Assembly: GCA_965215015.1 (NCBI GenBank)
Contig: OZ244042.1
Coordinates: forward strand, 2,080,001 to 2,144,000
Length of the DNA stretch: 64,000 nt
From: Candidatus Poribacteria bacterium
Lineage (GTDB): Bacteria; Poribacteria; WGA-4E; PCPOR2b
Direction: 5' to 3'
Part shown: piece after piece, positions 25,616-31,385 of the stretch
Layout of the letters: each line of letters opens with the position of its first letter
How positions within the stretch are numbered: position 1 is the stretch's first letter
Program-made: the position numbers and the translations under genes
Notes under the pieces: model-generated
Told to the model about the DNA's origin: nothing
Databases searched by the model: none
The model's input: only the letters and a program-made list of their open reading frames with translations

Positions 25616-27070
25616 ATGCCAAACCATTCATCAGCCATCGTGCAAAAACTGTGGAATTATTGTAATGTCCTTCGCGATGATGGGATCAGCTACGGCGACT
25701 ATGTGGAACAGTTGACCTATCTTCTATTTCTAAAAATGGCAGACGAGCAGGCCAAACTACCGTATAGAGATGAGTCCGTTGTGCCCGTGGGTCTAGACTG
25801 GGAAAGTCTCGTTGACAAGGAAGGCGATGCTCTTGAAAAGCACTACCGCCATATCCTCAATACACTGGCTCTGGAAAGTGGTACGCTCGGTGTAATTTTC
25901 AGAAAATCCCAAAACAAGATTCAAGATCCCGCCAAACTCAAGCGAATCATTCAACTGATCAACGATGAAACATGGATCGGGCTGGATATCGATGTGAAAG
26001 GGGATATCTACGAAGGTTTGCTGCAGAAAAACGCAGAAGATATCAAAAGCGGCGCGGGCCAATACTTCACGCCCCGCCCCCTGATCCAAGCAATTGTGGA
26101 GGTGATGAGGCCGGAACCGATGCAAACCATCTGCGATCCAGCGTGCGGCACCGGAGGCTTCTTCCTAGCAGCCTATGACTATCTAGCAAGCAGAAGCGAT
26201 CAGCTGGACAGGGAACAGAAACAGTTTCTCAAAGATAACACCTTTCACGGTGTGGACCTGGTGGACAGTGTAGTGAGGCTATGTGTGATGAATCTGTACC
26301 TTCACGGTATCGGTGGAGACAAAAGCCCTGTCCGAACAGGGGATAGCCTGATTTCGGATACGGGGCAACGCTTTGACATGGTGTTGACCAATCCGCCCTT
26401 CGGCAAGAAGAGTAGCATCACGATTGCGGACGAAAAAGGGAGAGCGGGAAAAAATTCACTTATCTATGAGCGGGAGGATTTTTGGGCGACTACCTCCAAC
26501 AAACAACTGAACTTCCTGCAGCATGTCAAAACAATTCTGAAAATCAATGGCAGGGCAGCGGTTGTCGTACCAGATAACGTCCTGTTTGAAGGAGGTGCGG
26601 GGGAGACCGTTCGCAAGAAGTTACTACACGAGTGCGATGTCCATACATTGCTCCGACTCCCGACCGGCATCTTTTATGCACAAGGCGTCAAGGCAAATGT
26701 CCTGTTCTTCGATCGCAGAACCGCAAGCGAAACCCCACGGACAGAGAAACTGTGGATTTACGACCTACGAACCAACCGGCGATTCACACTGAAAACGAAA
26801 CAGATGCACTACGACGACCTGCACGATTTCATCGCCTGCTACAATTCCGACAACCGCCATGATCGGAAAGAGACCGAACGGTTTAAGTCGTTTTCCTACG
26901 ATGAGCTGATGCAGCGAGACAAGGTCAGTCTTGATCGCCTCTGGTTGCGAGACGAAAGCCTTGAGGATACCGAGAATCTGCCGGAACCTGATGAATTGGC
27001 AGAGGATATCGCTGCGAATCTGATGGCAGCATCAGAGCAGTTTCAGGACATTTATGAGGGACTCGCTTAG
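25616..27070 (+). CDS. hsdM: type I R-M DNA methyltransferase subunit M
   Basis: KLWNYCNVLRDDG, GQYFTPR, DPACGTGGF and NPPF motifs; full length. Confidence 0.96.
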   Translation: MPNHSSAIVQKLWNYCNVLRDDGISYGDYVEQLTYLLFLKMADEQAKLPYRDESVVPVGLDWESLVDKEGDALEKHYRHILNTLALESGTLGVIFRKSQNKIQDPAKLKRIIQLINDETWIGLDIDVKGDIYEGLLQKNAEDIKSGAGQYFTPRPLIQAIVEVMRPEPMQTICDPACGTGGFFLAAYDYLASRSDQLDREQKQFLKDNTFHGVDLVDSVVRLCVMNLYLHGIGGDKSPVRTGDSLISDTGQRFDMVLTNPPFGKKSSITIADEKGRAGKNSLIYEREDFWATTSNKQLNFLQHVKTILKINGRAAVVVPDNVLFEGGAGETVRKKLLHECDVHTLLRLPTGIFYAQGVKANVLFFDRRTASETPRTEKLWIYDLRTNRRFTLKTKQMHYDDLHDFIACYNSDNRHDRKETERFKSFSYDELMQRDKVSLDRLWLRDESLEDTENLPEPDELAEDIAANLMAASEQFQDIYEGLA

Positions 27071-27434: not shown

Positions 27435-27998
27435 CTACCCGTTCAGGAAATTCTTCAACAGCTTTTTCCCTTCGCTGGTCAGGATCGACTCCGGATGGAA
27501 CTGCACCCCCCAGATCGGATAATCTTTATGCCGAACCCCCATAATTTCGTCTTGGTCCGTCCACGCAGTGAGTTCAAGGCAATCCGGCAGCGTCTCCTTT
27601 TTCACAATCAGAGAATGGTAGCGTGTCGCCTCAAACGGGTTTTCAAGGTCGTCGAAAATTTGCTCACCGTTGTGGTGAATCATTGACGTTTTGCCGTGCA
27701 TCAAGCGGCCCGCACGGACGATATCGCCGCCAAACACATCGCCGATACACTGATGCCCCAAGCAGACGCCGAGAAGGGGCACACGCCCGGCAAAATGACG
27801 GATCAGATCGCAGGAAATGCCTGCCTCCCGAGGTGTGCAGGGCCCCGGCGATATGACAATCTTCTCCGGCGGGAGGACGTCAATCTGGTCGAGCGTGATT
27901 TTATCATTGCGATGGACGACAAGGTCCGCACCTAACTCGCCGAGGTATTGCACGAGGTTGTAGGTAAATGAATCATAATTGTCAATCATCAATATCAT
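27435..27998 (-). CDS. trpG: anthranilate synthase component II (glutamine amidotransferase)
   Basis: [22 protein letters not shown] and QFHPES motifs; same operon as trpE. Confidence 0.93.
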
Positions 27999-28009: not shown

Positions 28010-28390
28010 CTAACCCTGCACCTTTCCCACCTCAAAATCCTCTAAAAACTTCCTCATGGTCTCAAGGCGGAAGCGCCCACAATGCGCTGGATCTAAAAAG
28101 AAATCCCAGACAAAATTGGCAGAGTTTTGTTTCACCTGAGAGATGAGGGTATCGTAATTCTCTTCAATTCTTTCCTCAATCTGCGCTTTTGAAAACGAAT
28201 AGATTGGGTCAATTGATAGCACCGTATTTCCCAGAGCATTCATTTCGCTGTTAAAACTAGCAGGTCCGTCACCAACGCCGAGTAGGCATAAGTTCAGTTC
28301 CGCATCAGAGAGATTGAACATCCGCTTATACTCTTGTAGCGATCTGCCCCAAGGGATGACTTGGTTAAGTGTCACACTCACGGTTTGCAC
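28010..28390 (-). pseudogene. SAM-dependent methyltransferase-like N-terminal fragment
   Basis: PWGRSL.EY..MF.L and GDGPASFN motifs, but only 126 aa. Confidence 0.6.
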
Positions 28391-28402: not shown

Positions 28403-29887
28403 TTATTCCAGGCCAGCCTCTGCGAGTTCAATTGCTCGTAACCCCGCCCGCGCCTTGTTGACCGTTTCCGCGTATTCCGTTTCGGGCACAGAGTCTGCGA
28501 CAATCCCGCCGCCCGCCTGGACGTAGGCAATCCCATCTTTGACGACGAGCGTGCGAATCGTAATCGCTGTATCTGCACTACCCGAGAAACTGAAGTAACC
28601 AACAGCTCCGCCATAAGGGCCCCGCCGTGTCGGCTCAAGTTCATCGATAATCTCCATCGCCCGGATCTTGGGGGCACCGGATAGCGTCCCGGCAGGCAAG
28701 CAAGCGCGAATCACATCAAAGGGGGTCTGCCCCTCGCGCAATTCTCCGACAACATGCGAGACGATGTGCATCACATGCGAGTAGCGTTCGACCACCATCA
28801 TCTCACTCACGCGCACAGTGTGGTATTCGCAGACGCGCCCCAAATCGTTGCGTCCAAGGTCAACGAGCATGACATGTTCAGCCCGCTCCTTTGGATCGGC
28901 GAGAAGTTCCATTGCCAACGCCTCATCTTCAGCCGGGGTTGCGCCACGCGGGCGGGTGCCTGCGATTGGACGCATCTCCGCAACACCGTCCTCAACGCGC
29001 ACCATCATTTCAGGCGAGGCACCAGCAATCTGGAGTTCATCAAACTTGAGGTAATACATATAAGGTGAAGGGTTCACCGTGCGCAACGCGCGATAAGCAT
29101 CGAATGTATCGACTGATAGCGGCACGGTAAAACGTTGAGACGGCACGACCTGAATGATGTCTCCCGCGGCGATATACTCCTTTGCCCGAAGGACAACCTG
29201 ATGGTAATCTTCCTTCGTAAAGTTTGACGTGACAGGCACATTGCTTGGACTTGCAAGAGGCTTATTAGTATAATTCGTCAACAATGGCTGTTTGAGTTTA
29301 GCCATGAGTCCGTCAATCTGATCAAGCGCGTGTTCGTAGGCTTGGTCAACATCACCGTTAATATAGGCATTGGCGACCACCTTGATCTGATGGTTCACAT
29401 GATCAAACACAAGAAGCGTATCGGTGACCATGAAAAAGCAATCGGGGAGTTCCCGATCATCTTCGGTAGTGTCAGGGAGGTCCTCGACGAAACGCACCAT
29501 GTCGTAGTTTAGGTAGCCGACTGCCCCACCGTGAAACCGCGGCAATCCCTCGACCTCAACGGGTTGGTAGCGACCCATCAATGCTTCAAGCTCCGCTAAC
29601 GGGTCCTCACTTTCCAATTCAACCGTACCCCCGGTTCGGAGGTCATCAATCTGGACCAGATTGTCCCTGCTCCTAAGTAGGATTGATGGGGCACTGCCGA
29701 GAAACGAATACCGGGCGACGTGTTCTCCTCCTTCAACGCTTTCCAGCAGGAATGCGTGATCACTGGCTCCAATCTTGTAAAACGCGGACACAGGCGTTTC
29801 CATATCCGCCAGAATCTGTTTATAAACAGGAACCAAGTTTCCGTGTCGCGCTTTTTCTCGAAAAGCCTCTAAGCTTGGGTAATACAT
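28403..29887 (-). CDS. trpE: anthranilate synthase component I
   Basis: FLLESVEGG, GDIIQVVPSQRF, NPSPYMY, PIAGTRPRG, KERAEHVMLVDLGRND and GTLSGAPKIRAM motifs. Confidence 0.97.
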   Translation of the reverse strand: MYYPSLEAFREKARHGNLVPVYKQILADMETPVSAFYKIGASDHAFLLESVEGGEHVARYSFLGSAPSILLRSRDNLVQIDDLRTGGTVELESEDPLAELEALMGRYQPVEVEGLPRFHGGAVGYLNYDMVRFVEDLPDTTEDDRELPDCFFMVTDTLLVFDHVNHQIKVVANAYINGDVDQAYEHALDQIDGLMAKLKQPLLTNYTNKPLASPSNVPVTSNFTKEDYHQVVLRAKEYIAAGDIIQVVPSQRFTVPLSVDTFDAYRALRTVNPSPYMYYLKFDELQIAGASPEMMVRVEDGVAEMRPIAGTRPRGATPAEDEALAMELLADPKERAEHVMLVDLGRNDLGRVCEYHTVRVSEMMVVERYSHVMHIVSHVVGELREGQTPFDVIRACLPAGTLSGAPKIRAMEIIDELEPTRRGPYGGAVGYFSFSGSADTAITIRTLVVKDGIAYVQAGGGIVADSVPETEYAETVNKARAGLRAIELAEAGLE

Positions 29888-29907
29888 GGAAGTCTCCTTA
29901 AAATCTA

Positions 29908-30288
29908 TCAGTACACTGCATCCGGATCAAAAACCTTTTCACCAACAATACGGGTAGAGTTACCATCGGGGGAGACTTCCCGAAAGAAACAGGAGCGGTA
30001 GCCGACGTGGCACGCCCCACCTTTCTGTTCGACTTTGATGAGCAGCGCATCACCATCACAATCAAAGGCGACCGTTCGCACCGTTTGCGTGTGCCCTGAA
30101 GTCTCCCCCTTGATCCAGTATTCCTGGCGGGAGCGGCTCCAGAAGCAGACACGCCCTGATTCTAATGTTCTCCGCACTGCCTCGCGGTTCATATAGCCGA
30201 CCATGAGAACCTCGTTGTTCCGGTCATCCTGTATAATGGCTGGGATTAAGCCGTTCTGGTCGGTTTTGAGTTGATTTAGAATTTCCAT
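29908..30288 (-). CDS. hisI: phosphoribosyl-AMP cyclohydrolase
   Basis: WSRSR..W.KGETSGH, DCDGD and ACH.G..SCF motifs. Confidence 0.97.
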
Positions 30289-30319
30289 TTTTTTTCCTCG
30301 TTTGGCAGAAAATAGACAT

Positions 30320-30360
30320 AAAAAAAGCCGTAGACAACGGGGGGCGTATGCCTACGGCTT
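30320..30360 (-). terminator. attenuator terminator hairpin
   Basis: Minus strand AAGCCGTAGGCA-loop-TGTCTACGGC followed by T7, ending about 31 nt before the hisI ATG. Confidence 0.85.
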
Positions 30361-30386
30361 CAGTTTCTAGATATGAGTCCAAAGGT

Positions 30387-30485
30387 TCATCTCAGCAAAG
30401 GCACACCACTTCCCTCAACACACCACCACCAATGCCAATGATGAAATACGATTTGAAATTGTGGTTGTCGGTTCAGAGTTTGCAT
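30387..30485 (-). CDS. His/Trp-rich leader peptide (32 aa)
   Basis: MQTLNRQPQFQIVFHHWHWWWCVEGSGVPLLR*; RBS GAAAGG; too short for the ORF track. Confidence 0.85.
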   Translation of the reverse strand: MQTLNRQPQFQIVFHHWHWWWCVEGSGVPLLR

Positions 30486-30521
30486 AGTACCTTTCAACTG
30501 CTTCTTTGTCAGATTGCTTAA

Positions 30522-30551
30522 AGCATATCATAATTCCAGTTTCTGTGTCAA
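30522..30551 (-). promoter_or_regulatory. sigma70-like promoter of the leader-hisI-trpE-trpG operon
   Basis: TTGACA-18bp-TATGCT with TG extended -10. Confidence 0.65.
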
Positions 30552-30572
30552 GAAAATTCCGATGCAGTGTTC

Positions 30573-31385
30573 TCACCTAACTAACGGCTTCAAAAACTCG
30601 ATGCTTTGACGCGCAATTGTCTCTGGATCCGGTTCAAAATTGAAGACTTCGGTTGAAAGATAACCGGTGTAATTAATCTCCTTCAATGCCTCGATAATTG
30701 GTGGATAATCCACATTACCGGAACCGGGGAGATAGCCATTATCGTCGTTGGTGTGAAAATGTGCCACGTGTTTGGCGTATTTGCGGATCTGCGTGGGCAT
30801 GTCCAAATTTTCGGCGGCTGTACTCGTCACGTCAAGAATTATCTGAAAATTCGGGTTATCGACCGCTTTGACCATTTCTACCGCTGCCGCCGGTGTGTTG
30901 ATGAAATTTGTGCTTTGACTTGTCAATGGTTCCATGCACAAGATAACATCCTGTTCTTGAGCAGATTCGGCGCACGCCGCGAAGGTTTCCTGCGCATAAC
31001 GCCACGCCTGCTCCTGTGTCAATGGATCCAGTATGTTCCGTTCATTGGGTGAACCGATAACCATAATCTTCCCACCCAGATCGGCACAACACGAGATCAG
31101 CGCAAAAAAATAATCTCGTGTTTGCTCGCGAATGGCTCCATCAGGGTGATTAACGTGCAACCCCTTTGGCGAGACCAACAGCCAGTGAAGACCAGCGATT
31201 TCGATTTTTGCTGCCTCCGCTGCTTTTCGGATCCGATCTCTTTCGGTTTGATTGATGTCTAACACCGACTCTGCGAGCGTGAAAGGTGCAAGCTCCACCG
31301 CATCGTAGCCGAGTTTGGCAGCACACAGAAAGACATCTTCAATCTGCCAATCCTCAAACATTTCGTTGCAGATAGCTAGTTTCAT
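30573..31385 (-). CDS. sugar phosphate isomerase/epimerase (D-psicose/D-tagatose 3-epimerase-like)
   Basis: G.DAVELAP, CMEPL, HFH.ND...PGSG and Y.GYLSTE motifs. Confidence 0.9.
   Translation of the reverse strand: MKLAICNEMFEDWQIEDVFLCAAKLGYDAVELAPFTLAESVLDINQTERDRIRKAAEAAKIEIAGLHWLLVSPKGLHVNHPDGAIREQTRDYFFALISCCADLGGKIMVIGSPNERNILDPLTQEQAWRYAQETFAACAESAQEQDVILCMEPLTSQSTNFINTPAAAVEMVKAVDNPNFQIILDVTSTAAENLDMPTQIRKYAKHVAHFHTNDDNGYLPGSGNVDYPPIIEALKEINYTGYLSTEVFNFEPDPETIARQSIEFLKPLVR

Follow-up and report, generated by a model that had tools for sequence, protein, structure and literature searches.

A conserved and highly probable leader-peptide attenuator with interleaved histidine and tryptophan codons before hisI-trpE-trpG in Poribacteria, which may sense both amino acids

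Can one leader peptide tie a single operon to the supply of two amino acids that are made by separate pathways? This question is raised by a 64,000-nucleotide (nt) stretch from a Candidatus Poribacteria bacterium (assembly GCA_965215015.1, contig OZ244042.1, positions 2,080,001 to 2,144,000; hereafter the window, in whose coordinates all positions are given). On its minus strand, a short open reading frame (ORF) with seven consecutive codons for histidine (His) and tryptophan (Trp) lies just before hisI, trpE and trpG. The original prediction, made without database searches, took this ORF for part of an attenuator that senses both charged tRNA-His and charged tRNA-Trp. According to our analysis, a classical ribosome-mediated (leader-peptide) transcription attenuator would govern the genes hisI, trpE, orf126 and trpG. 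That the element is a real and conserved attenuator of this kind is highly probable, and we are just as confident that it senses Trp. That it also senses His is somewhat more probable than not. The complete explanation, a dual His/Trp attenuator for which we infer the ribosome, tRNA-charging and read-through steps, carries the same modest degree of confidence as His sensing.

The promoter, the ribosome-binding site, the 32-codon ORF, the HHWHWWW codons and the terminator with its U run before hisI were each found on the minus strand where the original prediction had placed them. Together with the regions that can pair with one another, they are as follows.

30522 to 30551, minus strand: sigma-70-type promoter, with -35 box TTGACA at 30551-30546, an 18-nt spacer and a TG-extended -10 box TATGCT at 30527-30522; 10 of 12 matches in the promoter scan.
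30490 to 30495, minus strand: Shine-Dalgarno-like GAAAGG, 4 nt 5' of the leader ATG, from direct reading.
30387 to 30485, minus strand: leader ORF, with ATG at 30485 and 32 codons followed by TGA at 30389-30387; product MQTLNRQPQFQIVFHHWHWWWCVEGSGVPLLR.
30423 to 30443, minus strand: control codons CAT CAT TGG CAT TGG TGG TGG (HHWHWWW), seven in a row.
30437-30425, minus strand: region 1, within the control codons; can pair with region 2 (RNAalifold).
30393 to 30406, minus strand: region 2, GUGUGCCU (30406-30399) followed by UUUGCUG, inside the last seven leader codons; its partner is region 1 or region 3.
30346 to 30353, minus strand: region 3, AGGCAUAC, in the terminator 5' arm; antiterminator partner of region 2.
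30320 to 30361, minus strand: intrinsic terminator from folding, in which 30361-30345 pairs with 30339-30324 (16 bp, one bulge, CCCCC loop), with U7 at 30326-30320.

A simple terminator scan missed the hairpin because its top was counted as a loop of more than 8. Read as DNA on the minus strand, the letters at 30406-30399 are GTGTGCCT and those at 30353-30346, within the terminator 5' arm, are AGGCATAC; region 2 falls in codons 27-31 of the 32-codon leader. Exact copies of the three core motifs occur only once in the 5.94-Mb genome. The promoter box, CTTGACA plus (A/G)TGATAT, was kept across an alignment of 38 upstream regions, and GAAAGG was kept in the same-genus rows of A1, an alignment of 37 distinct leaders.

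In the mechanism that we propose, transcription would start about 30 nt upstream of the leader ORF. A ribosome that reaches the stop codon would sit on region 2; region 3 would then pair with region 4, the terminator would form, and RNA polymerase would halt at U7 before hisI. When charged tRNA-Trp is scarce, the ribosome would stall within HHWHWWW, cover region 1 and leave region 2 free to pair with region 3, in which case no terminator would form and the operon would be transcribed. Scarcity of charged tRNA-His would have a like effect, a step that we hold with lower confidence than the one for Trp. The His and Trp codons together would act as an OR gate, suited to an operon that carries the genome's only hisI and its only trpE.

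We quantified the two helices of this switch by comparing leaders. In A1, the terminator was 94.6% paired, 5 of its 16 pairs had changed on both sides, and none of 500 shuffles was as good. The antiterminator helix GUGUGCCU:AGGCAUAC was paired in 99.3% of the cells of the same alignment, with 3 of its 8 pairs changed on both sides. A wider alignment, A3 (56 rows, with leaders of four more families), was fitted to the rival terminated structure and holds three spurious reverse-strand rows in which the terminator is read backwards; these were kept in the count, which they can only lower. In A3 the antiterminator was 97% paired, 5 of 8 pairs and 17 cells had changed on both sides, and none of 500 shuffles reached the covariation score, while slid controls were paired to 14-64%. 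Both helices use region 3, and antiterminator and terminator are mutually exclusive. The original prediction had offered pairing between the leader 3' end and the terminator 5' arm as a possible antiterminator, with covariation of the stems as a check; pairing at 97-99% and compensatory changes in both alignments bear this out.

Ribosome occlusion was examined by folding. Minimum-free-energy folding without region 4 was inconsistent in six leaders and was replaced by pair probabilities. For a ribosome placed at the stop codon, the model gave an antiterminator probability of 0.00 in 36 of 36 leaders; in the leader studied here it was 0.76 when the A site held TGG 30428-30426, third of the Trp codons in the cluster. 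Several leaders from other families formed the antiterminator whenever region 2 was uncovered. The model is crude (a single fixed footprint, equilibrium, no kinetics), and its results carry little weight either way.

Overall, the element is widespread in the phylum. DNA of the leader and hisI found matches in 39 of 41 related genomes. A leader-like ORF lies upstream of hisI in 30 of 30 loci from relatives, with the W-x-W-W core intact in 29. Among 33 Poribacteria loci whose hisI is at least 66% identical, a simple filter recovered the leader in 27 and inspection by eye in 4 more, the upstream DNA of the remaining 2 being too short to judge. A covariance model, R1, built from 37 distinct leaders (alignment A2), matched in 136 of 151 sampled genomes of the phylum and in 122 of the 131 of high quality. 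Except for weak second copies, R1-type elements always stand upstream of genes for Trp, aromatic or His biosynthesis or of trpS; the weak matches L177 and L181 were rejected as plain terminators behind other genes. In distant lineages the leader peptide is unconserved except for the control codons and the region-2 stretch, and the latter is conserved at the nucleotide level. This pattern fits a leader peptide rather than a functional small protein.

The codons themselves point to both amino acids. When the 37 distinct leaders were anchored on W-x-W-W, Trp stood at offsets 0, 2 and 3 in 37, 37 and 36 of them, respectively. His stood at offset -2 in 32 of 37 (CAT in 28, CAC in 4), at -1 in 28 of 37 and at +1 in 34 of 37 (CAT in 28, CAC in 6), with extra His codons after the Trp run at +4 in 8 leaders and at +5 in 8 leaders. 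A span of 10 codons holds 2-4 His codons in 34 of 37 leaders, and the other 22 or so codons are free of His in 27 of 37; on these counts the clustering is more than chance. The W-H-W-W core is kept at the amino-acid level with synonymous changes, and a family of about 100 sampled genomes carries ISNHWHWW(R/H/Q) before hisI. The conservation of a His/Trp cluster in related hisI upstream regions, which the original prediction had named as its first check, is seen in most of these leaders. A distant hisI-first leader (L162, family f7) reads GHHHWCWWHE, with His placed around a W-C-W-W core like those of leaders without hisI. Its His codons flank that core, so by this comparison they are not merely the structural motif UGGCAU, which is considered below.

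Sister leaders that do not precede hisI provide a natural contrast. R1-type leaders before trpE-trpG without hisI read KRWWYTSW (L157), SRWRHIDR (L158), RRWCHISW (L180), RNWCWWWRN (L159) and RFWRWWWRS (L173), and leaders before trpS in two genomes read GTWCWWRT (L172) and GIWRWWCI (L176). Before a gene for ADH synthase (TIGR01949, an alternative entry to the aromatic pathway), the leaders NNYWRWYWRF (L160) and RFWRWWWRFYY (L163) mix Trp with Tyr and Phe codons; before an AsnC-domain gene plus trpD, the leader reads SHAYHWFWWW (L161). In 9 of these 10 leaders there is no more than one His codon near the Trp codons, and Cys, Arg, Tyr or Phe codons occupy the positions that hold His in hisI-first leaders, while the region 2:3 helix still covaries. 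In four of the genomes with such leaders, hisI lies elsewhere without a leader. Leaders are rich in His before hisI, poor in His in the sisters without it, and carry Phe and Tyr before ADH synthase; the codon mixture therefore appears to follow operon content. It is about an even call whether a single chassis (promoter, leader, 2:3 switch and terminator) has been re-programmed codon by codon, with Trp codons only before trpE or trpS, Trp with Phe and Tyr codons before ADH synthase, and Trp with His codons before hisI-trpE; the last form would then be the first cross-pathway multivalent attenuator and an OR gate. As an observation apart, where hisI is not beside trpE in L189 and L190 (genomes G030 and G027), it is longer (161-167 residues) and is followed by a 75-residue Cys-rich ORF and then by an ORF of 342-344 residues with a GAGKT P-loop motif.

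Several results weigh against the dual reading, and against the switch as drawn. The 1:2 helix that RNAalifold predicted (UGGCA...GGUGGC with region 2) is 98% pairable but invariant: none of its pairs shows a change on both sides, and shuffles score no worse. We tested for seven features that define an attenuator; six are present, and this helix, pairable but invariant, is the seventh. In whole-leader folding with a masked ribosome, the terminator won at every ribosome position. As long as the terminator is whole it is always the more stable fold, so that on these models the switch must be kinetic and set during transcription. When each of the three His codons of this leader was put in the A site, the antiterminator probability did not exceed 0.04; occlusion folding, another check that the original prediction had named, thus places these His codons poorly, and its answers for His positions are mixed. 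In the same-genus leaders of A1 (the duplicated copy L015 excepted), it is at offsets +2 to +5 alone that the probability goes up. Among the hisI-first leaders, His codons nearby are few or missing in SYSWYWWF (L028/L060), LYYCERW (L059), CWWPWW (L066/L184) and NDWHWWR (L030), as well as in L063 and L064. Conversely, L161, on a contig of only 3.2 kb, carries two His codons with no hisI next to it, and the leaders without hisI come from only four families, which leaves at most 2-3 independent contrasts. The product of hisI catalyzes the third step of its pathway, not the first. Finally, two bases of the central His codon (C and A) lie inside predicted 1:2 pairs, UGGCAU copies region 3 (AGGCAU), the Tyr replacements UAU and UAC (L020, L028/L060) would keep the pairing, and each extra His behind a Trp recreates UGGCAU. 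The conservation of His may therefore be partly structural.

We also looked outside the phylum, for the origin of the gene order. A trpE homologue stands behind hisI in 27 of 47 hisI loci from other phyla (L070-L113; Verrucomicrobiota, Auribacterota, Omnitrophota, Acidoferrum and others), often with a gap of 0.5-1 kb. Because trpE follows hisI in these phyla too, the adjacency appears to be widespread and not peculiar to Poribacteria. In the three non-Poribacteria loci that were inspected (L067, L078 and L082), a hisF-like coding sequence runs into hisI and there is no leader. A regular expression for Trp- or His-rich small ORFs matched in 11 of the 47 outside loci, these three not among them. 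A leader before hisI has been seen only in Poribacteria, which is to be read together with those 11 matches.

The explanation that best survives beside the dual one is an attenuator for Trp only. It holds that the His codons are kept because UGGCAU or UGGCAC pairs with region 2 (GUGCC) as region 3 does, or are inherited baggage, and that hisI is a passenger from an older hisF-hisI-trpE arrangement. Such an attenuator would account for the central His C and A in the 1:2 pairs and for His-to-Tyr changes that preserve them, for extra His codons behind WW that recreate UGGCAU, for the modelled antiterminator probability of at most 0.04 at the His codons of this leader, for the hisI-first leaders with no or one His (L028/L060, L059, L066, L030), and for hisI-trpE adjacency without such a leader in 27 of 47 other-phylum loci. 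It does not fit so well with the His codon at -2, which has persisted in 32 of the 37 leaders, now as CAT and now as CAC, and lies outside the RNAalifold 1:2 helix, nor with L162, which has HHH before and H after W-C-W-W and no UGGCAU between its Trp codons. Furthermore, 9 of the 10 leaders without hisI replace His by Cys, Arg, Tyr or Phe and yet keep a covarying 2:3 helix, and control by Trp alone would shut down the genome's one hisI as long as Trp is abundant. We consider this explanation possible but rather unlikely. For the dual His/Trp attenuator of the original prediction, the attenuator and the fixed Trp codons stand; sensing of His is supported by comparison, with a structural alternative and exceptions to set beside it.

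Far less likely is a nascent-peptide sensor, in which HHWHWWW would stall the ribosome by its own sequence rather than for want of charged tRNA, perhaps on a signal from free Trp or a metal, in the manner of TnaC. Nascent chains rich in Trp are able to contact the exit tunnel, and the W-H-W-W core is kept at the amino-acid level with synonymous changes, as such a sensor would have it. However, the geometry is that of a starvation sensor, since a stall at the cluster would switch on biosynthesis, a response for times of shortage rather than surplus; the residues between the Trp codons vary freely in sister leaders (C, R, F, Y); and nowhere at tunnel distance does the peptide have another conserved block, its C-terminal conservation being that of region 2 at the nucleotide level. 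Least likely of all is that the ORF, conserved as it is throughout the phylum, codes for a small, stable protein or a precursor peptide and that the hairpin, which scores as a terminator on both strands in three loci, merely ends the upstream gene, for a conserved promoter lies between that gene and the ORF, the N-terminal two thirds of the peptide are unconserved in distant lineages, an alternative helix overlapping the terminator covaries, and, weak second copies excepted, the genes behind the element are always trpS or genes of Trp, aromatic or His biosynthesis.

RNA libraries were searched as well. These data are assembled contigs of relatives, 85-99% alike with shares of only 0.05-0.10, and they are uninformative on habitat, ends or levels. 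One contig of 1111 bases (record 9 of library X3) covers 29700-30499 and thereby joins the leader, the terminator, hisI and the start of trpE, and another (record 5 of X1) covers 30008-30451, with leader, terminator and hisI sequence. These bridging contigs are as read-through would give, and DNA carry-over would also be possible. In X6 and X8, the bin 30312-30345 is uncovered and leader contigs end at 30366 and 30350. We did not count this as evidence of termination, because the two ends differ, the X6 end is adapter-like, and contig depth cannot rank parts.

What does the leader control? The genes behind it, all on one strand, are the following.

29908 to 30288, minus strand: hisI, phosphoribosyl-AMP cyclohydrolase, 126 residues, ATG at 30288; PF01502 at 123 bits, NF000768 at 178 bits against a cut-off of 126.
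28403 to 29887, minus strand: trpE, anthranilate synthase component I, 494 residues; TIGR00564 at 597 bits against a cut-off of 517.7.
28010 to 28390, minus strand: orf126, a conserved ORF of 126 codons without a family, between trpE and trpG.
27435 to 27998, minus strand: trpG, glutamine amidotransferase component II, 187 residues; PF00117, and NF005799 at 329.9 bits against a cut-off of 327.

The gaps between them are 20, 12 and 11 bases, and because of these short gaps and the common strand we read the four genes as one operon. The hisI gene is the sole PRA-CH match in the 5.94-Mb genome. A second chorismate-binding gene of the genome scores above the pabB cut-off and below that for trpE. 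By tblastn, orf126 occupies the same place in 13 other loci with 63-87% identity over most of its length, and a 14th locus holds a 33-residue remnant; its DNA, with the trpE-trpG spacer, is unique in the genome and not a repeat, and the product has no Pfam or NCBIfam match. Between trpE and trpG lie about 400 nt in the present genome; some relatives have about 720 nt there and others about 40-60 nt. Because this length varies, orf126 is, as far as the gaps tell, variably present among relatives, and it may be shortened here. Just downstream of the operon, on the opposite strand, lies a gene for a type I restriction-modification methylase (25616-27070, plus strand; HsdM_N and N6_Mtase).

The other pathway genes, trpD, trpA, trpC, hisG and a hisA/hisF pair, lie megabases apart. 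Inspection by eye and with simple filters of the stretches printed ahead of trpC, trpD, hisG, the trpA cluster, one hisA/F homologue and the second chorismate-binding gene showed no His or Trp leader. A genome-wide attenuator scan gave 570 sites with a hairpin and a T run, 305 of them with small ORFs nearby, which is too noisy to support anything, and we set it aside. The original prediction had explained the mixed operon as a fusion of two pathways that consume phosphoribosyl pyrophosphate (PRPP). This rationale is weak: the users of PRPP are HisG and TrpD, which are encoded elsewhere in the genome, HisI and TrpE/TrpG do not use it, and hisI-trpE adjacency also occurs outside the phylum without the leader.

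A few features of the leader and its relatives are recorded here in their own right. Between the leader stop and the terminator, at 30383-30368 on the minus strand (A1 columns 150-165), the motif UUUGGAYUCAUAU is kept at 70-90% identity in two families. It showed no consistent pairing in the models that we used; a pause site or a further alternative helix is conceivable. More than 100 near-matches to the terminator 5' arm, with 2-3 mismatches, are found genome-wide in the form (A/T)AGTAGTAGGCATACG, for example upstream of hisG and trpD. They make up a dispersed repeat, and the core of this repeat, GTAGGCATACG, is identical to region 3 of the attenuator.

Variation on the unit itself takes several forms. 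In one genome of the same genus (L015/L125, G005:C1:4527075-4527392), the leader-terminator unit stands in tandem duplicate before hisI, with two R1 matches of 150 bits each, and the second copy opens with a hisI-like MEIL start fused to the leader. In another (L016/L039, G009), an in-frame short palindromic insertion splits the Trp cluster (SHHW-LVPHCEDPENRE-WHC), while region 2 and the terminator are intact and R1 still matches at an E-value of 7e-20. Six genomes of genus g10 have a second, weaker R1 copy (L151-L156), 150-355 nt upstream of the gene for a 740-residue DUF5916/CBM9 protein. This copy retains region 2 and the terminator, its leader, MHFINPHHNNCFRW..., contains one Trp codon and two codons each for His and Asn, and it may be a decayed or re-used attenuator. 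In L020, L021, L022, L049, L051 and L053, there are 80-390 extra bases between the terminator and hisI, and the leader starts 270-590 nt upstream of hisI, compared with about 200 nt here.

How does this attenuator compare with known systems? It resembles the trp attenuator of E. coli (trpL) in having a promoter-proximal short ORF with adjacent Trp codons, in its 2:3 and 3:4 pairings with a U run and a predicted 1:2 pairing, in a stop codon placed so that a finishing ribosome would block region 2 and in having trpE as the gene to be controlled; in E. coli, too, the choice of fold is made during transcription. Unlike trpL, which has 2 Trp codons, the leaders here have 3-4, interleaved with His, and the operon opens with hisI. 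No member of the host's candidate phylum has been cultured, and the other trp genes of the host are scattered and show no such leader in the stretches inspected. Sequence similarity to trpL, or to its Rfam model (Trp_leader), is lacking as well: when 29800-31000 was searched by cmscan against all 4227 models of Rfam 15 with E-values up to 10, only three chance-level matches to unrelated families were returned, and no leader family such as Trp_leader or His_leader. With the enterobacterial his attenuator the element shares His codons in a leader peptide before a his gene, followed by an intrinsic terminator. However, hisL has seven consecutive His codons, whereas here there are 2-4, never in a pure run and always mixed with Trp, and control would extend to hisI, the third step, but neither to hisG nor to an entire his operon; in the region inspected, no leader precedes hisG.

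A parallel in logic is offered by the multivalent leaders of thr (Thr and Ile), ilvGMEDA (Leu, Val and Ile) and ilvBN (Val and Leu). In these, codons of several amino acids are interspersed and shortage of any one relieves termination, as is predicted here, where interleaved His and Trp codons match hisI and trpE/trpG. Known multivalent leaders mix the amino acids of one pathway family, whereas His and Trp come from separate pathways and mirror a mixed operon. Side-by-side His and Trp genes, partly co-transcribed, are found in the aromatic supraoperon of B. subtilis (hisC) and in actinobacteria with hisI near trpE, but no single leader with both kinds of codon has been reported there. Control of the B. 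subtilis supraoperon, according to the part of PMC4027176 consulted, is by TRAP.

Leader-peptide attenuators are best known from Proteobacteria and Actinobacteria. The mechanism nevertheless occurs in several phyla, also before tRNA synthetase genes: the trp, leu and ilv leaders of actinobacteria and the His leaders of hisS and hisZ in Bacillus are like the present ones in this respect (compare trpS in two genomes), but they belong to other phyla and are unrelated in sequence. According to the sections consulted of PMC2965389, which itself reports cases in Firmicutes, Proteobacteria and Actinobacteria were the only other groups in which such leader peptides were known in 2010; the sections of PMC1262725 give no RNA element upstream of actinobacterial his genes. 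A His+Trp leader or a Poribacteria attenuator does not appear in the consulted portions of PMC1262725, PMC1590026, PMC10138114 and PMC2965389. Nor did the full-text literature searched (subscription journals and supplements lay outside its scope) contain any account of attenuation in Poribacteria or any His+Trp leader, in agreement with the original prediction, which knew of none.

Set beside these systems, the Poribacteria element would bring a textbook mechanism, with a leader unrelated to any Rfam family, to the whole of an uncultured candidate phylum. What is unusual in it is the cross-pathway combination of His and Trp, along with a natural series of leaders that appear to have been re-programmed. 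If sensing of His is true, a handful of codon changes would suffice to rewrite the program of an attenuator once a foreign gene had entered its operon, and nature would supply, in the hisI-first form, a compact OR gate with two inputs. A comparative series stands ready in the related leaders ahead of trpE, trpS and the ADH synthase gene.

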